Shown here: one piece after another, positions 4,454 to 30,216 of the stretch | Position numbering within the stretch: position 1 is the first letter of the stretch | Layout: each line of letters begins with the position of its first letter | From: a virus | Taxonomy: Duplodnaviria > Heunggongvirae > Uroviricota > Caudoviricetes | IMG/VR virus record: IMGVR_UViG_2537561604_000012 | DNA: 30,216 nt | Strand: one strand, 5' to 3' | Position numbers and translations under genes: made by a program | The notes under the pieces: generated by a model | Seen by the model: only the letters and a program-made list of their open reading frames with translations | The model's database searches: none | Told to the model about the DNA's origin: nothing

Positions 4454-5303
4454 AACTCCGCTTAAATGGGTGGGCAGCAAAGCCCGCCTCATGCCTAAGC
4501 TGCGTCCGCACCTTCCAGAAGGTAAACGCCTGGTTGAACCGTTCGCAGGTTCCTGCGCCGTCATGATGAATACGGATTATGACGAGTATCTGATCGCAGA
4601 TGTGAATCCTGACCTGGTTAATCTTTATAAGGCGATGGCGTATCACACTAATGCGCTGCTGAATGAGCTGGAGATCCTGTTTTCTGCCGGTTCGTTAGGT
4701 GATGTAGAAAGCCGTGCCGTTTTCTATTACGCAGTGCGTGATGCTTTCAATCTTTCTGGTGGTAAGGCCGGTTCTGAATCTGTTGAAAATGCTGCGCGTT
4801 TCCTGTACCTGAACCGGCACTGCTTCAATGGTCTGTGTCGGTATAACCGTCGAGGCCAGTTCAACGTCCCGTTCGGTAAGTACAAAAAGCCTTATTTCCC
4901 CGCTGATGAAATCCGCGCCTTTGCTGAAAAAGCAAAACGCGCAACGTTCATTACTGCCCACTATTCAGAAACGCTTGATTTGGTTCGGGGCGGGAGTGAC
5001 GTTGTTTACTGTGATCCGCCTTATCTGACTGATGCCGACAATTTCACCGCTTACCATGAGCGCGGTTTTTCGCATATGGATCAGGGGCGGCTGGCGCGTA
5101 AACTGCGCCGTCTGGCGGAACGTGGGATTCCCGTTGTCGCGTCAAACAGCGATCTGGAAATGGTGCATTACCTGTATGCAGGGTTTGACGCCGTAAAGGT
5201 TAATGCGCCGCGTAGTGTCGGTGCGGCAGCTGCAAGCCCGAAAACGGCGGCAGAGCTGATTCTTAAATGGCCTTTACCGGCGACTTCTGAGGCCAGCGCA
5301 TGA
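4443..5303 (+). CDS. dam: DNA N6-adenine methyltransferase (Dam/D12 class)
   Basis: ATG 4443 with GGAGG 4433-4437; motifs PFAGSCAV (SAM-binding motif I) and DPPY (catalytic motif IV), [10 protein letters not shown]-terminal motif typical of Dam family. Confidence 0.85.
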
Positions 5304-7321
5304 CGCTGGCAATAAACGAACAATGCTATGCCGTTGATGCCTGGAGGCGGGAAACTTTCGCACCAGGCACACCGGCAGACGCGACTATCACAGAACGCCG
5401 CCTGTGGGCTGTAAACCCGCAGGATTATGAATGGCGATCCCGGTACCTGCATGAGATACCCGACTGGTTAGCCGGGTATTTTGGCCGTCGCTATGAAAAG
5501 CTTTTTTCTGGCCGTGACGGGCGTCGCCGTGCCAATACATTCCTGCGCAAAACAATCGGTGAGAATGTATTGCCACGTCTGCGCAAAGTGGCTGCGCGTT
5601 ACTCGCTGGCCGCTGATGCTGCTGATCTTCCTTTTGGTAAGTCGCTGGAGCGCTTGCCGTCACTAGACCGTCCTGATCTTAAAAAACTGGCTGGCCAGGT
5701 ATCTGGCTGGATTTCCCAGTCACTTTATGACTTCACCGAACAGTTTGATTCCGGCACTGACGACGCCAGAGAGCTGCATCGCCGCACTCTGGAATCTTAC
5801 CGCCATCTTTGTGCCTGTTGCCTGATGCTGAATAACCAGCCGCCGTACTGGACTGAACATGAGGCCAATGAAGGTCAACTGGAAATGCGTAAGGCGGAAT
5901 CCGGGATACTGCGCATGATGGCGCCGGAATGGTGGTACCTGCGTCTTAAACGTGCGCGTGATACGCAGCGCGAGCACATGGCCATTGCGGTGGGACAGGT
6001 GCAAAAAGCGGCCAGCGCTTATGTATCCCGCAAAACACTGGGTGAATGGATAGACCAGAAAAAGCGGAATCTGGAGTTCTTTAAAAAGTTTGATCTGCTG
6101 AATGATGAGGGGCTGCGCATTGCACTGGACAGCATGGTGCACCGCAGCGTTGCAAATCCGGCGATCCGTCGATGTGAACTAATGGTAAGAATGCGAGGGT
6201 TTGAAGATATGGCCAATGAAGAAGGGCTGGCCGGTGAGTTTTACACTATCACCGCGCCATCACGTTTCCATGCGGTTCACAGCAAAGGGGGCTTTGTATC
6301 GCAATGGGATGGAAGTACGCCGCAGGATACCCAGCGCTATTTATGCGGCGTATGGGCAAAAGCGCGTGCAGCGATCTCGCGTGCTGGTATCCATGTATTT
6401 GGGTTTCGGGTTGTTGAGCCTCACCATGACGGGACACCGCACTGGCATATGTTGCTTTTTATGCGTCCGCAGGACGTGGACACGGTACGCGATATTCTTT
6501 GTTATCACGCCAGAATTACCGATTCTGAAGAACTGCAATCTGAAAAGGCGCTGAAGGCGCGTTTTCATGTTGAAGCTATCGATCCCGCCAAAGGTTCGGC
6601 CACGGGCTACATCGCGAAATACATTTCAAAAAATATTGATGGTTTTGCGCTGGATGGTGAGCAGGACGAAGAAACCGGCGAAAACCTGCGTGATATGGCT
6701 AAGTCCGTTTCCGCGTGGGCTTCACGCTGGCGTATTCGCCAGTTTCAGCAGATTGGTGGTGCGCCGGTAACCGTCTGGCGTGAGCTGCGTCGGTTGCGGG
6801 ATCAGGTACTGACAGATCGCAGAATGGATGCGGTTCTGGCCGCTGCTGATGTCGGGGACTGGGCTGCATATACCCAGGCGCAGGGAGGTGCACTGGTTGC
6901 CCGCCGTGATCTGGTTGTTCGTCTGGCCTATGAAATTACGGAACAGGGCAACGAATACGCGGAGGACGTGCAGCGCGTACAGGGTGTTTATTCTCCTTTG
7001 ATTCCTGATTCAGAAGTTTGCACCCGTCTGGTTAAGTGGCAAAAGGTTGCGAAGTTGGCCGAAGCGCCAGCGGAGGCGGGTTTTTCTGGCGGCAACGCCG
7101 CCCCTTGGAGTTCTGTCAATAACTGTACGGAGGGGGGAACCCGCAGACGGTTAAAACTGGAATTACGCAGTCGGGGTTTTGAGGGTTCCGATGAAGAAAT
7201 AGCCATTCTCCTGCGGGGTAGTGGTTTGATATTTGGTCAGGGGGCACTGATTTACCGCAATGGGCGGTTGAAGGAAACACGAAACGAACCATTGCAGGAG
7301 CTTTGGCCGGGGTGGTTATAG
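5300..7321 (+). CDS. A: Rolling-circle replication initiator endonuclease gpA (P2 A / 186 A family)
   Basis: 673 aa; HUH-type motif PHWHMLLF and active-site tyrosine motif TGYIAKYISK; ATGA overlap with dam stop; position at end of early operon. Confidence 0.9.
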   Translation: MTLAINEQCYAVDAWRRETFAPGTPADATITERRLWAVNPQDYEWRSRYLHEIPDWLAGYFGRRYEKLFSGRDGRRRANTFLRKTIGENVLPRLRKVAARYSLAADAADLPFGKSLERLPSLDRPDLKKLAGQVSGWISQSLYDFTEQFDSGTDDARELHRRTLESYRHLCACCLMLNNQPPYWTEHEANEGQLEMRKAESGILRMMAPEWWYLRLKRARDTQREHMAIAVGQVQKAASAYVSRKTLGEWIDQKKRNLEFFKKFDLLNDEGLRIALDSMVHRSVANPAIRRCELMVRMRGFEDMANEEGLAGEFYTITAPSRFHAVHSKGGFVSQWDGSTPQDTQRYLCGVWAKARAAISRAGIHVFGFRVVEPHHDGTPHWHMLLFMRPQDVDTVRDILCYHARITDSEELQSEKALKARFHVEAIDPAKGSATGYIAKYISKNIDGFALDGEQDEETGENLRDMAKSVSAWASRWRIRQFQQIGGAPVTVWRELRRLRDQVLTDRRMDAVLAAADVGDWAAYTQAQGGALVARRDLVVRLAYEITEQGNEYAEDVQRVQGVYSPLIPDSEVCTRLVKWQKVAKLAEAPAEAGFSGGNAAPWSSVNNCTEGGTRRRLKLELRSRGFEGSDEEIAILLRGSGLIFGQGALIYRNGRLKETRNEPLQELWPGWL

Positions 7322-7398
7322 GTGTGCATGTGTGTGTAACACATTCATTTGTCAGTAGATGGCAGGAAATTAAATTTCACAATTCGTGCTTTAAGGTG

Positions 7399-7418
7399 TA
7401 CTGTATGTATATCCAGTT
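7399..7418 (+). promoter_or_regulatory. LexA-box-like SOS operator TACTGTATGTATATCCAGTT (CTGT-N8-CCAG) upstream of small ORF
   Basis: Matches LexA consensus TACTGT-(AT)4-ACAGTA at left half-site perfectly and right half with one core mismatch (CCAG vs ACAG); AT-rich centre; 22 nt upstream of ATG 7441. Confidence 0.5.
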
Positions 7419-7440
7419 ATTTATTGCTTGTGGGGGCTAA

Positions 7441-7647
7441 ATGGATCTTTTGGAGGCGTCGGCACAGCTGGAACGCATTGAGTTATTGGCCAAAATTGCC
7501 CATGTTTACGAAAGTAACCAGAGAGAAAAAACAATCGCTTTGGCCTGGATTGGAGAGCTTGCGGGAGAGGTTCGCGAAATGGTTAAAAAGGAAGGGCAAC
7601 GCCCCCAGAATGGGGGCATTTCAGGCGGCGGGAGTCGCTTTCAGTAG
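7441..7647 (+). CDS. Small hypothetical protein (68 aa) downstream of SOS-box-like site; possible Tum-type antirepressor analogue
   Basis: ATG 7441 preceded by GGGGG; function inferred only from position (186 has LexA-controlled tum after gene A). 3' end overlaps convergent ogr-like gene and hairpin 7601-7617. Confidence 0.4.
   Translation: MDLLEASAQLERIELLAKIAHVYESNQREKTIALAWIGELAGEVREMVKKEGQRPQNGGISGGGSRFQ
7601..7617 (-). terminator. GC-rich hairpin GCCCCCA-gaa-TGGGGGC just downstream of ogr-like stop; candidate terminator of P-Q-ogr transcript
   Basis: 7-bp perfect stem; on minus strand followed within ~12 nt by TTTTT (plus 7584-7588 aaaaa). U-tract not adjacent so moderate. Confidence 0.35.
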
Positions 7648-7890
7648 GTCTAATGCCATCTGGCGCTGATCGGGTGAAAGTGCATTCAGTATTTTTTGCA
7701 CCATCGCATCACCCGCTTTAGCGCTGGGGCTGAGAGTGTGGGAGAACGTCAGATTCATAACAAACGTGTGGCCACACTCAACATCTGAACAGGCGCAGTA
7801 AATATCCGCAATTTGCCGGTGCTTCCTGTTCGTTTTACGAATAACAGCCTTTGAGCCGCATTCCGGGCATTCGATTTTCAGAACTCGCAT
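7621..7890 (-). CDS. ogr: Ogr/Delta-family zinc-finger late-gene transcriptional activator
   Basis: From ATG 7888-7890 (RBS GGAG 8 nt upstream): MRVLKIECPECGS...IYCACSDVECGHTF gives C-x2-C-x20-C-x-C-x4-C with Y-x-C...C-x-x-TF, as in P2 Ogr (C-x2-C-x22-C-x4-C ... ATF). Alternative upstream ATG 7942-7944 overlaps Q stop (ATGA). Confidence 0.75.
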   Translation of the reverse strand: MRVLKIECPECGSKAVIRKTNRKHRQIADIYCACSDVECGHTFVMNLTFSHTLSPSAKAGDAMVQKILNALSPDQRQMALDLLKATPAA

Positions 7891-7940
7891 ATTCCATGCT
7901 CCAGCTGTTAAATGATGCCTGGATTTTAGCCTGTTTCGCC

Positions 7941-9002
7941 TCATGCCGCACCCTTATCCGTTGATTCTGTGTAACTTAAATCAAAGTTAAGGTGTAGCCT
8001 TTCCGGTATTTCGGGATCATTGTTAACGGCCAGCATAAAACGGCGCTGGATGGGGGCAATTTCGCTTTTCTTGTAAATGCGTTCAGCCTTTTCAACATCC
8101 CCCAGTCCGGCAGTGTTCTGCGGGACAATACCGGCGAGGCCAGCAGGGAAACGGTGAGCGTTCAGAATGTCCTGGGCGCTGATGTTCTTGATGTTGGCAA
8201 ATTCATCCTTTGCGGAAATATCCCCCATTTCAATGAATTTGATGGCGTCGCCGTCTCCACCGGGAATGTTTACAAGGATGGTGGAGAAGTTACCGATCCC
8301 TTTGCTGTCACGCAGCTGCTGTTCAATTTCTTCCTCCATTTCGTCCGTCATGCTGGGATCGCGGGTATAAAGAATACCGCCTGTGTGCGCACCATTGTGG
8401 TAATAGCGGCGTCGGAAAATGACCGCTTCACTGTTAAGTAACGCGGAATGCACACCGCCTATGTAGTCCGGCAGCCCGTAGATATGCTGTTGCGGGTCAT
8501 ACATTTTGATGAAGATAATATCTTCTTCTGGCCATACCTGCGGTTCCCCTTCCTGTAACACCACGTAGTCACCAGGCTTATCCAGGGCGTTATCTCTGAC
8601 TTTGCGGCGGCGAATATACAGACCGGGCAAGGGTTCAAGTGCGATCACGTCACCCCAGCCGTTACGAATTTTGGCAATCGCAATATCCCCAAAGGTTATA
8701 TAGTCAAACGCTGCCGCTTCCAGCTGGTCGTGAATAAGCCCGCCCCCCTGGTAGTCTGAAACAATCATGTTTTTACGGGCGTGAATGATGCCGCCGTGCT
8801 GACCGTTAAGATTAATCAGTTGCGCGAGTGCCAGCCGGTCAATCGGCTGGGTGAAGTGATCGGCGGCATTGTCGTACCAGATATCACGGTAATCTGTGCC
8901 GGTAGTCAGAACTGGTTCAGGTTTGCCGAATGTGATAATGCTCATCTTTTTTGATTTGTCGCCGCGCTGGTCGCGCTTAACAAAGCGTTTCTTTTTACTC
9001 AT
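7941..9002 (-). CDS. Q: Portal (capsid portal vertex) protein, P2 gpQ-like
   Basis: 353 aa; immediately downstream of and overlapping (ATGA) the large terminase gene; size matches P2 Q (~344 aa). Confidence 0.8.
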   Translation of the reverse strand: MSKKKRFVKRDQRGDKSKKMSIITFGKPEPVLTTGTDYRDIWYDNAADHFTQPIDRLALAQLINLNGQHGGIIHARKNMIVSDYQGGGLIHDQLEAAAFDYITFGDIAIAKIRNGWGDVIALEPLPGLYIRRRKVRDNALDKPGDYVVLQEGEPQVWPEEDIIFIKMYDPQQHIYGLPDYIGGVHSALLNSEAVIFRRRYYHNGAHTGGILYTRDPSMTDEMEEEIEQQLRDSKGIGNFSTILVNIPGGDGDAIKFIEMGDISAKDEFANIKNISAQDILNAHRFPAGLAGIVPQNTAGLGDVEKAERIYKKSEIAPIQRRFMLAVNNDPEIPERLHLNFDLSYTESTDKGAA

Positions 9003-26872: not shown

Positions 26873-27836
26873 AAGCCATTACCCGGAACTGGCATCCGGG
26901 CTTCATTTGCCAAAGACGGCCAGAGTCGTGGCGCATTCAGAGCCAGTAAAAAGCGGTAACTTTGCCGATCCCTTCCGGCCACGTTACGCCGTGGACGTGC
27001 AACTGCTTGACGCAGACGGAAACCCGGACAATCAGACGCCTGTTTACTCAGCGGTGCCGCTGCCGGTACCAATGGCCGGGAATGATTCAGGTATGTTTCA
27101 GTTCCCGCCTGAAGGGACGCTGGTTGAGGTCGCATTCACAGGAGGCAGACCGGATAAACCCTTTATCAGGCAGACGCTGCCGGATGGCACCAGTCTGCCG
27201 GACGTTAAACCCGGTGAGCAATTACAGCAGCAGCGGGAAGAAGTATCCCTGAGGGTGACTCAGGCGGGTGACTGGGTAAGGCAGACCGATCAGACCATCA
27301 GCGAAACATCAATGGTGCGAACCGTAAAAGCCGATACAGAACAGCGCGAACTGGTCAGCCGTGAAACCACGGTGAAAGCCACGGATAAAACCACGGTACT
27401 GGGAACCGCCACATTGCTGGCCGGAGCCATCCAGCAGGTAAGCGCCGGTGATTATAGCCAGGCGGTGAAAGGTAACAGGCTGGCCAGTATTGAAGGAAAC
27501 GAAGAAACGGACATAGCAGGACAGCAGTCCACTAAAGTGGGCGGTGCTGTAGCCGTGGAGGTTGGCGAAAGTCTGACAGAGAAGATTGCCGCACTGCGTA
27601 AATCAGTGGCTGCTGGCGGTCAGCAGGTCATGGGGGCAACTGTCCATATTGGCAGTGAGAGCATCAACGCCCTGACCATGATGCTGGATACCATTGATTT
27701 ACTGGCAGAGCTTGCGCAGCAATGCGCGAACCATTCGCACCCCACCGTTGGAACTCCAACCAATGCCGCCGCGTTCACACTGACGGCGACGAAAGCCGGG
27801 CAGACCCGGAGCAAATACCAGAATATAATTGCCTGA
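26820..27836 (+). CDS. Baseplate spike / gpV (gp5 OB-fold)-like protein; start uncertain
   Basis: OB-fold-type motif VPLPVPMAGNDSGMFQFPPEGTLVEVAFTGGRPDKPFI; last gene before terminator. First ATG 26820 lacks RBS; frame opens at 26817. Confidence 0.5.
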   Translation: MTRWRSHGRRETAQRQIESHYPELASGLHLPKTARVVAHSEPVKSGNFADPFRPRYAVDVQLLDADGNPDNQTPVYSAVPLPVPMAGNDSGMFQFPPEGTLVEVAFTGGRPDKPFIRQTLPDGTSLPDVKPGEQLQQQREEVSLRVTQAGDWVRQTDQTISETSMVRTVKADTEQRELVSRETTVKATDKTTVLGTATLLAGAIQQVSAGDYSQAVKGNRLASIEGNEETDIAGQQSTKVGGAVAVEVGESLTEKIAALRKSVAAGGQQVMGATVHIGSESINALTMMLDTIDLLAELAQQCANHSHPTVGTPTNAAAFTLTATKAGQTRSKYQNIIA

Positions 27837-28352: not shown

Positions 28353-29069
28353 TTACTTTAAACTGAGTTTAAAATTTTTGAATTTACCATACAGGGTATC
28401 GCGTACAGAAAAGGAAGGAACCCAATTGAATCCTGTTCGCCATGGGCGAGGACTACCGTGAAAGCATACAACTGAAACATCATCAGGAACTTTGCCAGTA
28501 GCATAATCTGATGCCAAGTCAGGGTTGTAACCTATCATTTTACGTGTGGCTATATGGCATTTGTAACTAACAACAGATCCGGGAATTATATCTTGCCACA
28601 ATACAGGTTTCATGACGCTACCCAGAAACCCCTGATCACCCCATTTATCTTCTGTTTGGCATTCATGCATATTTTTTTCGGGGTCAGTCCAGAACGCATC
28701 CCAAACATATTGTTTGATAGACGCAGGAATGAACATAATGGATGAGTTAACCCTGGAAGGGTGGTTAAACTCCCGCAGCATAGTGAACTCTTTCGCCGCA
28801 TCAAAGATTTTGATATCACCAGTTATGACAACATCAACGTCAAAATAAAGCAGATCCTTATCACCTATTACCGGATGGTTTGGATTAAAAAGCTCAATCT
28901 TAGACCACCAACCTGGAAGGTTGTGCATTAACGGTGCGGTTTCAACACCAGGGATACTTCCAGCATCAGTTAAGCAAATTGAAGGTATGCCTTTAAATTG
29001 GCTATGCAGCCATTGTGCGTGTTTGGGGGTAAATTCTTTACCGCATTTAAGGACGGATACAATCAGCAT
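28353..29069 (-). CDS. Putative GT-A-type glycosyltransferase-like protein (DxD motif); low-GC cargo gene
   Basis: 238 aa; LLYFDVDVVITGDI (DxD-like) after N-terminal beta-alpha-type segment MLIVSVLKCGKEF; convergent to phage late operon, own terminator; AT-richer than phage genes. Family not established. Confidence 0.4.
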   Translation of the reverse strand: MLIVSVLKCGKEFTPKHAQWLHSQFKGIPSICLTDAGSIPGVETAPLMHNLPGWWSKIELFNPNHPVIGDKDLLYFDVDVVITGDIKIFDAAKEFTMLREFNHPSRVNSSIMFIPASIKQYVWDAFWTDPEKNMHECQTEDKWGDQGFLGSVMKPVLWQDIIPGSVVSYKCHIATRKMIGYNPDLASDYATGKVPDDVSVVCFHGSPRPWRTGFNWVPSFSVRDTLYGKFKNFKLSLK

Positions 29070-29250: not shown

Positions 29251-29277
29251 AAAAAAGCCACTCCGTCAGAAGTGGCT
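29251..29277 (-). terminator. Hairpin + U-tract (minus strand), second terminator-like element
   Basis: AGCCACT-ccgtcaga-AGTGGCT with aaaaaa on plus side (T-tract on minus). Confidence 0.45.
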
Positions 29278-29432
29278 TAATTATATGATTATAAAGCTAA
29301 AATTTGGTGGCCCCTTGGACTTGAACCAGCGCCCGGGCGATTATAAGTCTTATGGTGTAACCTTTTGATATTTATATATAAATTTTATTTTTATGTGAAT
29401 TTTAAGGATCTCTAACCGCTTTATTTTTGGCT

Positions 29433-29464
29433 AAAAAACCCGCAGTTGTAGCAATGATGCGGGT
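29433..29464 (-). terminator. Rho-independent terminator of minus-strand two-gene operon
   Basis: On minus strand ACCCGCA-13 nt loop-TGCGGGT followed by TTTTTT; 62 nt downstream of small ORF stop. Confidence 0.55.
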
Positions 29465-29525
29465 TGAGTTAGTCTTTAAAACTGAAATTGATCAGCCATA
29501 GCGTTCATAGGTAGCTGCGTATGCA

Positions 29526-29690
29526 TTAACGTTTTTTAGGTGGTGGGGCTACTTGCTGCGTTTGCTGCGTTTGCCGTGGTGGTTGATAACCATTGTTCTG
29601 CTGATTTGGCCTACTTGATGGTTGATATCCCTCATTTATAGGTTGCCAGCCATCATATTTAGTATTGTTTGCCGGTTTTTCTTCAGCCAT
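29526..29690 (-). CDS. Small Gln/Pro/Asn-rich protein (54 aa), not in ORF track
   Basis: ATG (revcomp of 29688-29690) with GTGAGGTAAAAA RBS; translates MAEEKPANNTKYDGWQPINEGYQPSSRPNQQNNGYQPPRQTQQTQQVAPPPKKR; start overlaps upstream gene stop (ATGGCTGA). Confidence 0.45.
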   Translation of the reverse strand: MAEEKPANNTKYDGWQPINEGYQPSSRPNQQNNGYQPPRQTQQTQQVAPPPKKR

Positions 29691-30216
29691 TTTTTACCTC
29701 ACTATTGTTGGGAGAATGTAATTTTACCTCAATAAACTCAACACTTTCTATTTCATTAGTCAATATTATTATGCCTAATGTATCAGCTAGTTCGTGATCG
29801 AAATCGCCATTCTCATCAAGCGCCCAATGTTTCTCAAGATAGATTTGTTCGGGTTCTGGACTATTGGATGCAAATGAGTCACTTCCATAAAAACCACCAT
29901 ATTTTTTACCGTTTTTTAGTGTTACCAATACCCAGCAGCGTTGTCTGGTTGAGAAGAAGTAGTCCCAAGAGCGCCCTATAGGGTGTGGAAGAATATTTTT
30001 GACTTTTTCCCAGTTACGAATTTTTAGCAATGCAACAGGTAATAGTACAGGTATTACAATTAAAACTAAAAAGTAAAAAATGTAATATAAAATAGGGTGT
30101 TTCAAAAAAATGTCATTTGTTTCAATTAGATAAATTGGTATTAAAAGAAATGAAAAATTTATGCAACTATATGAAACAACGTCAATTAAAACTTTTGATG
30201 TATCCAAATCAATTGA
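29683..30216 (-). CDS. Membrane protein with N-terminal TM helices and soluble C-terminal domain; 5' end probably beyond window
   Basis: Track ORF starts at TTG (30205-30207) and frame remains open to window edge; two hydrophobic helices (FSFLLIPIYLI; ILYYIFYFLVLIVIPVLLPVALL); very AT-rich. Confidence 0.5.
   Translation of the reverse strand, partial: SIDLDTSKVLIDVVSYSCINFSFLLIPIYLIETNDIFLKHPILYYIFYFLVLIVIPVLLPVALLKIRNWEKVKNILPHPIGRSWDYFFSTRQRCWVLVTLKNGKKYGGFYGSDSFASNSPEPEQIYLEKHWALDENGDFDHELADTLGIIILTNEIESVEFIEVKLHSPNNSEVKNG

Follow-up and report, generated by a model that had tools for sequence, protein, structure and literature searches.

The stretch of viral DNA analysed here (the window; IMG/VR record IMGVR_UViG_2537561604_000012, 30,216 nt) ends in two minus-strand genes, one for a membrane protein of the Pfam family DUF6338 (PF19865) and, directly downstream, one for a 54-residue peptide with repeated GYQP-type motifs. 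The pair exemplifies what appears to be an undescribed two-gene module, widespread and phylum-spanning, which combines a membrane Sm-like protein with a GYQP micropeptide. The window itself is a P2/HP1-like prophage integrated between mntS and mntR.

The gene pair and its signals

The 3' part of the DUF6338 gene lies at 29683-30216 (minus strand), where 534 nt encode residues 32-208 and the stop codon, and runs off the window end. The start given in the window's open reading frame (ORF) table is a TTG codon at 30207, the true start lying beyond the window edge. The region 29300-30216 is 100% identical to Escherichia coli Combat13F7, and upstream extension through the identical loci of this strain (L001) and of contig L080 recovers the complete gene of 627 nt, encoding 208 residues. 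The first 31 codons, including the first transmembrane (TM) helix, are absent from the window.

The peptide gene (54 residues, MAEEKPANNTKYDGWQPINEGYQPSSRPNQQNNGYQPPRQTQQTQQVAPPPKKR) lies at 29526-29690 (minus strand). It shares 8 nt with the DUF6338 gene (ATGGCTGA, 29683-29690, minus strand), an overlap containing the peptide ATG (29690-29688) and the DUF6338 stop codon TGA (29685-29683), and a Shine-Dalgarno sequence GAGG (29697-29700, minus strand) lies 6 nt 5' of the ATG. The operon is closed by an intrinsic-terminator-like hairpin (29431-29465, minus strand) with an 8-bp G+C-rich stem (AACCCGCA/UGCGGGUU), a loop of 13 nt and a following U6 tract. The hairpin is present in both the minimum free energy and the centroid structures, and was overlooked by a simple terminator scan because of its long loop. 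The GC content of 29526-30216 is 34.7%, compared with 51.9% for the prophage body. An earlier sequence-only reading of this DNA, which described a very AT-rich minus-strand operon cut by the window edge, coupled through an overlap and a ribosome-binding site and followed by a terminator, is borne out in each of these respects. In Combat13F7 the small ORF has already been annotated by PGAP/RefSeq, as the hypothetical protein WP_152951382.1.

The DUF6338 protein

The large protein belongs to DUF6338 over its full length (128.6 bits, cut-off 26.5; E 3.1e-37), with residues 8-195 aligned to profile positions 7-202 of 205, and its RefSeq name is likewise DUF6338. The family is large: a profile built from 45 homologues and searched against 1.84 billion representatives recovers 3357 clusters at 50% identity.

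The AlphaFold2 model (pLDDT 74.5) contains long helices at residues 3-29, 37-64 and 72-98, a linker with a conserved HP...WDxFF motif, and a beta barrel. For a relative with 41% identity, modelled from a deeper alignment, the pLDDT over the domain is about 95. TM helix 2 (residues 37-64) is encoded at 30118-30201 and TM helix 3 (residues 72-98) at 30016-30096, both on the minus strand, the latter followed by the K/R-rich, presumably cytoplasmic linker that carries HP...WDxFF. The sequence-only reading recognised no domain and counted two N-terminal TM helices; both points are superseded, the first by the Pfam match and the Sm/Hfq-like domain described below, the second by the complete protein, which has three helices, TM1 lying beyond the window edge. 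Charge counts over 71 homologues obey the positive-inside rule, with 3.2 K+R against 0.65 D+E after TM3, which suggests an N-out, C-in topology with the Sm-like domain on the cytoplasmic side. Polar motifs are highly conserved within the TM helices (PGF in TM1, and [DE]x[VI][SA]YSCIN in TM2 across the same 71 homologues), so that the membrane part is probably more than an anchor.

The beta-barrel domain (residues 114-194; 29728-29970, minus strand) consists of an N-terminal helix followed by a strongly bent five-stranded antiparallel sheet, as in the Sm fold, and its best structural match is the Sm/Hfq fold. A structure search of BFVD returned one weak full-length viral match, to an uncharacterised Siphoviridae protein (E 1.3e-5); the other matches are weak (E at least 1.9e-3) and mostly to small viral proteins, two being annotated as Sm-like or RNA-binding.

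The peptide family

The small ORF is intact in relatives at 77% nucleotide identity, and pairwise comparisons give dN/dS values of 0.04-0.10 with synonymous sites near saturation. This substitution pattern points to strong purifying selection on a real gene, and it answers the question of small-ORF conservation on which the sequence-only reading had made its proposal depend.

A family survey covered 77 DUF6338 loci, one genome per species, from Gammaproteobacteria, Betaproteobacteria, Campylobacterota, Bacteroidota, Chloroflexota, Chlorobiota, Nitrospirota, Planctomycetota, Omnitrophota, Cloacimonadota and one archaeal metagenome-assembled genome. A GYQP peptide is encoded downstream of DUF6338 at about 69 of the 77 loci, and essentially every intact locus with downstream sequence has a same-strand ORF for a hydrophilic protein of 40-85 aa directly 3' of DUF6338. 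The loci without a peptide are contig ends, pseudogenes and one insertion sequence (IS) insertion, and five more peptides, missed by the first filter, follow DUF6338 ORFs that are frameshifted or extended. In 63 of 64 loci the two genes are separated by -26 to +32 nt, and a Shine-Dalgarno-like motif precedes the peptide start in 55 of 64.

The peptides share the pattern M-x(9-14)-[DEN]G[YW]QP-x(4-8)-[KR]GYQP-x(12-20)-GGYQP[TP]..G.xP.N..PP[KG]x[EKPR]. At least two G[YWH]xP motifs are present in 58 of 66 distinct peptides, and most of the 66 end in PP[PKG]x[EKPR]. Among 3918 other ORFs of 40-90 aa at the same loci, taken as a control, only two genuine false positives have two or more motifs (a background of about 0.05%). 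The window peptide fits the family both in its position, overlapping the DUF6338 gene by 8 nt, and in its sequence. It contains GWQP (residues 14-17; 29640-29651), GYQP (residues 21-24; 29619-29630) and a second GYQP (residues 34-37; 29580-29591), and closes with the tail PPPKKR (residues 49-54; 29529-29546), all on the minus strand. In the peptide alignment (A5), G14, G21, Y22, P24 and Y35 are at least 90% conserved, and G34, P37, P50 and P51 are invariant. The peptide is hydrophilic and rich in Q, N and P, with seven K+R against four D+E (+3), and has no signal peptide and no TM segment. The sequence-only reading was therefore right about the 54-residue ORF and its Q/P/N-rich composition, and fell short in calling the peptide low-complexity, since three G[YW]QP motifs and a Pro-rich tail recur across phyla.

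A profile of 40 peptide sequences, searched against 5.8 billion proteins, matches 310 clusters at E <= 1e-3. Among the matches listed (120 of the 310 clusters), all are 50-74 aa long, with no Pfam domain and no name beyond 'hypothetical'. The peptide itself has no matches in Pfam, NCBIfam, PADLOC or PHROGs. In a reverse test starting from three peptide matches, DUF6338 was found directly upstream in 10 of 10 places. Distant DUF6338 proteins (about 25-30% identity; Mesorhizobium, Rhodococcus and Dietzia plasmids) are followed by a Pro-rich ORF with G[YF]xP and/or a PPKK-type tail. The peptide gene is easily missed, having been overlooked by gene callers in four of five Salmonella loci.

Peptide copy number varies, with tandem pairs in A. 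pittii and at L033 and three copies in Pseudomonas (Stutzerimonas) stutzeri; at L099 (10119-10430), as at L033, the tandem peptide genes follow a single DUF6338 gene. Some elements carry two DUF6338 genes within 4 kb (L088/L090, 414-1016 and 4404-4988), with a peptide gene called only after the second. On the metagenomic contig L111 (3001-3753), DUF6338 is fused in frame to a GY[EK]..GYKP..PPKK peptide (protein P0218, 250 aa), next to a gene for an MmeI/Eco57I-type restriction-modification enzyme. Other 'long' DUF6338 proteins from GC-rich genomes (L012, L013, L054) have Ala/Ser/Pro-rich tails, which resemble an out-of-frame translation of the peptide gene.

A related operon in P. stutzeri

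DUF6338 was found mentioned in the literature in a single paper (PMC10433244), and no mention of PF19865 was found. The paper describes 'operon 9' of P. stutzeri, which comprises Pstu14405_RS12030 (DUF6338, 194 aa) and three novel proline-rich small proteins (PMC10433244). All three peptides (e.g. MVSSPGSGVQTNGANPPAPANVRPAMAPTAPPPPKK) were detected by digest-free mass spectrometry as intact, abundant and apparently unmodified products, with 44-114 peptide-spectrum matches in normal growth and up to 100% sequence coverage, in whole-cell, non-membrane fractions (PMC10433244). The authors judged them species-restricted, recognised neither a conserved family nor its connection to the fold, and raised an antimicrobial role for proline-rich small proteins (PMC10433244). 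As at the other loci, DUF6338 is followed in operon 9 by same-strand ORFs for hydrophilic, Pro-rich peptides, here ending in PPPPKK, a tail in common with the peptide family; unlike the window, the operon encodes three peptides in tandem, of 36-47 aa and without GYQP motifs.

Genes for a DUF1156 methylase and a SNF2/PLD helicase (CP036186, 2646334-2652095) are located about 14 kb upstream of this operon. Such a pair is typical of DISARM-like systems, and its presence is consistent with a defence-island setting.

The prophage carrying the pair

Comparison with the empty mntS-mntR site of E. coli K-12 shows that a 15-bp direct repeat (GCTATATTATAAAGC) occurs on either side of the insertion. The attL core lies at 199-213 of the window; attR adjoins mntR, outside the window. 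The repeats bound the whole insertion, and the DUF6338-peptide pair is therefore inside the prophage. Genes annotated or matched by Pfam in the identical loci include integrase, CI, CII, Fil, Baseplate_J, tail fibre, Caudo_TAP and HP1_ORF34.

The pair belongs to an AT-rich cargo block (38% GC, against 52% for the phage), which is oriented opposite to the tail genes and lies between the last tail gene and attR. The horizontal acquisition suggested by the sequence-only reading from composition agrees with this setting of an AT-rich cargo block within a prophage bounded by att repeats. In transcription order the block encodes a 298-aa protein, a 341-aa Cys-rich protein, DUF6338 and the peptide, followed by the terminator. 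The 341-aa protein has a zinc-ribbon-like C-terminus and matches the PADLOC candidate PDC-S64 (E 2.5e-47). Its gene lies outside the window, 20 nt upstream of DUF6338 and in the same orientation (L001 9031-10056, minus strand; L080 6955-7980, plus strand). In this phage it is possibly transcribed together with the pair; elsewhere it is not a conserved partner.

Related prophages carry the pair in other company. An E. coli SC477 prophage at the same att site has DUF6338 and the peptide with different companions, and in Salmonella and Citrobacter the same phage type occupies a different site, near mug and rpoD, again with different cargo companions. Since the companions differ between related prophages, DUF6338 and the peptide constitute the conserved unit, which travels with the phage. 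At the nucleotide level the cassette is found in only 4 of 5426 complete E. coli genomes. The homologues might, as the sequence-only reading allowed, have turned out to be ordinary housekeeping membrane proteins of the host; this rarity, and the occurrence of relatives on prophages, plasmids and variable islands, speak otherwise. Three prophages (L001 of Combat13F7, and L108 and L110, both from Citrobacter) have lost most structural genes by internal deletion and retain the integrase or repressor end together with the cargo end that carries DUF6338 and the peptide (at 100% identity in Combat13F7). The persistence of the cassette in decayed prophages hints at selection for the cargo after phage decay.

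A separate cargo gene at 28353-29069 (minus strand) encodes a 238-aa protein that matches PHROG 1962 ('glycosyltransferase', moron category; E 4e-81) and has no Pfam match; it is missing from the SC477 relative. Between this gene and the peptide gene lies a fragment resembling a tRNA 3' end (..GGTTCAAGTCCAAGGGGCCACCA; about 29316-29350, minus strand), in which neither ARAGORN nor Rfam recognised a tRNA, and which could be the relic of an att site or a mark left by cargo exchange. It is followed by a strong terminator hairpin with a 10-bp stem and a T-run (29255-29278, minus strand).

Cargo in this prophage is concentrated on the tail-end/attR side and not in the gpA-portal interval, a classical defence hotspot of P2. 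That interval (7322-7944 in the window, between gpA at 5300-7321 and the portal gene at 7941-9002) seemingly contains only one 107-aa ORF, which is probably Ogr/Delta-like by analogy with a Citrobacter relative. The last tail-region gene, which encodes 567 aa in L080 and L082, is represented in the window by two overlapping ORFs (26165-26872 and 26820-27836), and is marked 'frameshifted' by RefSeq in SC477. The split could reflect a frameshift, either programmed or mutational.

Genomic context across the family

At the surveyed loci, 129 immediate neighbours match 147 different Pfam families, with no third gene conserved among them. Upstream ORFs of about 75 aa that looked recurrent were considered as a third gene and rejected, being mutually unrelated. 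The domains seen most often among these neighbours are of defence type, namely SNF2, Helicase_C, AbiEii-type AAA_21, SMC_N, AAA_23, TIR_2, OLD-like TOPRIM, Eco57I and full-length GajA (E down to 3e-273).

Individual loci illustrate the settings. In Enterobacter the module lies beside Abi_C and a prophage remnant, and in an E. coli integrative element it lies near SNF2, TIR and SIR2 genes. One locus has RecT/YqaJ prophage genes, a methylase and an SMC/AAA_15 ATPase as neighbours, and another has HNH nucleases. On a Mesorhizobium plasmid, a nucleotidyltransferase and SLATT pair lies 11 nt upstream of DUF6338. The Klebsiella phage-plasmid pJN2-26 carries the module with a 43-aa peptide, and the module was also found on 21 plasmids, e.g. 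a 10.5-kb mobilisable plasmid of A. pittii (with two tandem peptide genes) and a 16-kb plasmid of Fluviibacter. These settings fit an accessory module of mobile elements and not a housekeeping gene.

Comparison with known systems

The Pfam entry for DUF6338 gives no function, fold or partner, so that the fold, the three-TM topology and the obligate peptide are new relative to the annotation found. Compared with Hfq, Sm and LSm proteins, the DUF6338 domain differs in being tethered by three TM helices and in having no detectable sequence similarity to them, and its proposed ligand would be a repeat peptide and not RNA. In the mechanosensitive channel MscS, too, a cytoplasmic Sm-like beta domain comes after three TM helices, a gross layout like that of DUF6338. 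The resemblance is a lead only, and neither a sequence nor a fold match to the TM3, beta and C-terminal domains of MscS was found.

The pair fits the description of a phage moron by composition, terminator, position and variability. In common with the prophage morons lambda RexAB, HK97 gp15 and P2 old/tin/fun, it is AT-rich, oppositely oriented, ended by a terminator, adjacent to an att site and variable among relatives, with defence candidates among its neighbours. It has no homology to any of these genes. Defence hotspots of P2 and P4 phages have been described between gpA and the portal gene, downstream of gpL and between integrase and att (PMC9122126; bioRxiv 10.64898/2026.02.27.708500). 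The module is unmentioned in both reports as far as they were searched, and the pair lies outside the classical gpA-portal and tail-fibre hotspots. A search for literature on Sm-like transmembrane proteins in anti-phage defence returned nothing relevant.

Two peptide classes were considered for the small protein and rejected. A ribosomally synthesised and post-translationally modified peptide precursor would call for a modifying enzyme, and the loci share none; in mass spectrometry, the homologous peptides of P. stutzeri were seen without modifications. A proline-rich antimicrobial peptide does not fit a product that is not secreted, is only mildly basic and is without Arg-Pro repeats. The layout of an adjacent, coupled gene pair on mobile elements is that of toxin-antitoxin systems.

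Interpretation and proposed mechanism

The components of the module resemble no characterised system. A role in abortive infection, exclusion or toxin immunity, as raised by the sequence-only reading, is plausible, and it is the genomic context, with PDC-S64, Abi_C, TIR, SIR2, SNF2, Gabija-like ATPase and nucleotidyltransferase-SLATT genes nearby, that suggests it. Our preferred reading is that of a self-contained membrane module for mobile-element conflict, in which the repeat peptide binds an Sm-like ring; as a whole chain, we give it slightly less than an even chance.

Sm, LSm and Hfq proteins assemble into rings of six or seven members with one ligand site per subunit. By way of its Sm-like domain, DUF6338 may form such a ring beneath the inner membrane, and the disordered peptide would bind this ring multivalently, with one aromatic-Gln-Pro motif per subunit site. 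Multivalent binding of this kind would explain both the repeat nature of the ligand and the translational coupling of the two genes. Through it the peptide would control the ring: the membrane protein would be the effector or blocker at the membrane, acting in exclusion or abortive infection, and the labile, polyproline-rich peptide its regulator, sensor or neutraliser. The complex would thereby serve the mobile element against competing phages or elements. That the pair represents a new two-component class, a membrane Sm/Hfq-like ring controlled by a disordered repeat micropeptide as a mechanism of anti-phage or inter-element conflict, is a more tentative proposition, which we consider possible and somewhat doubtful.

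Several observations weigh against this interpretation. The DUF6338 protein has no match to the LSM or Hfq Pfam families at E <= 0.1, the DUF6338 profile has no matches among all PDB sequences at E <= 10, and the Sm2 and RNA-binding sequence motifs of Hfq/Sm are unrecognisable in DUF6338. DUF6338 has no match in PHROGs, and neither it nor the peptide matches a PADLOC-DB v2 model at E <= 0.1. The P. stutzeri peptides are without GYQP, so that the motif is not universal in the family. In the AlphaFold2 model of P0218, the sole natural in-frame fusion, the peptide part is undocked (pLDDT 51-65); the protein was modelled as a monomer, with no alignment depth for the tail, and the undocked tail therefore neither supports nor refutes binding. 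About one in ten immediate neighbours is defence-like, a rough raw count with no matched background, and many are ordinary metabolic genes; the apparent link to defence genes is one of guilt by association.

The module could alternatively be an addiction or toxin-antitoxin module, in which DUF6338 is a membrane-damaging toxin and the peptide an unstable antitoxin, so that the toxin is set free when the element is lost or translation halts. This explanation, which overlaps the abortive-infection version of our preferred reading, accommodates the two translationally coupled genes, the retention of the cassette in heavily deleted prophages, and its carriage on plasmids of 10-16 kb beside MazF-type toxin-antitoxin and replication genes; the peptide, disordered and polyproline-rich, would also be typical of labile partners. 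The putative antitoxin is, however, encoded downstream and has no DNA-binding domain, and its P. stutzeri counterparts are abundant in normal growth. Moreover, DUF6338 is frameshifted with the peptide ORF remaining in L072, L075 and L078, and at L017 an intact DUF6338 gene is followed by an IS element and no peptide gene, which argues weakly against toxicity. On balance we consider addiction unlikely. A housekeeping or stress role as a membrane-tethered Hfq/Sm-like RNA-binding protein (e.g. in RNA anchoring or sequestering), with the peptide as modulator or chaperone, draws on the same structural match as our preferred reading, on the breadth of the family and on those loci that lie among ordinary metabolic genes. 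It sits poorly with the patchy distribution in E. coli, the carriage on prophages and plasmids, the highly variable neighbours and the undetectable Hfq/Sm RNA-binding motifs, and is quite unlikely.

The roles could also be reversed. The peptide would then be the active product, for instance a proline-rich effector that targets translation or the ribosome inside the cell, or an exported antimicrobial or signal, and DUF6338 would export it, anchor it or confer immunity to it. The pattern conservation of the peptide is at least that of many effectors, and its gene has undergone tandem duplication at several loci. The peptides end in PPP, PPG, PPD or PPE, which are EF-P-dependent stalling motifs, and an antimicrobial role was raised for proline-rich small proteins in the P. 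stutzeri study. Against this, the peptide shows neither a signal peptide nor a leader, its gene has no conserved neighbour for processing or modification, its mild basicity and the lack of Arg-Pro repeats set it apart from known antimicrobial peptides of the proline-rich class, and a three-helix protein with an Sm barrel is unlike known exporters. The P. stutzeri peptides, intact and unmodified in non-membrane fractions of whole cells, are moreover cytoplasmic, and we regard an active peptide as distinctly improbable. Finally, the small ORF might be a chance low-complexity ORF beside a single real gene, given its bias towards Q, P and N and its omission from most automatic annotations. The low dN/dS at saturated synonymous sites, the motifs conserved across phyla in 310 clusters against a minimal background, and the detection of homologous peptides by mass spectrometry refute this.

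Significance

On the more tentative proposition of a new two-component class, the module would contain the first bacterial Sm-fold ring that uses a dedicated, genetically coupled peptide ligand. If the preferred reading is correct, the combination of an Sm ring with a repeat peptide would be a new component logic in phage and plasmid cargo. DUF6338, a family of more than 3000 clusters, would gain a fold and an obligate partner, and with them an experimental handle, while a micropeptide family that is routinely missed by gene callers would become annotatable by simple motifs. The three orphan peptides of P. stutzeri would be members of a general system and not species-specific novelties. Even if the module does not act in defence, a membrane peptide-binding Sm ring would be a biological novelty in a fold known above all for RNA binding.

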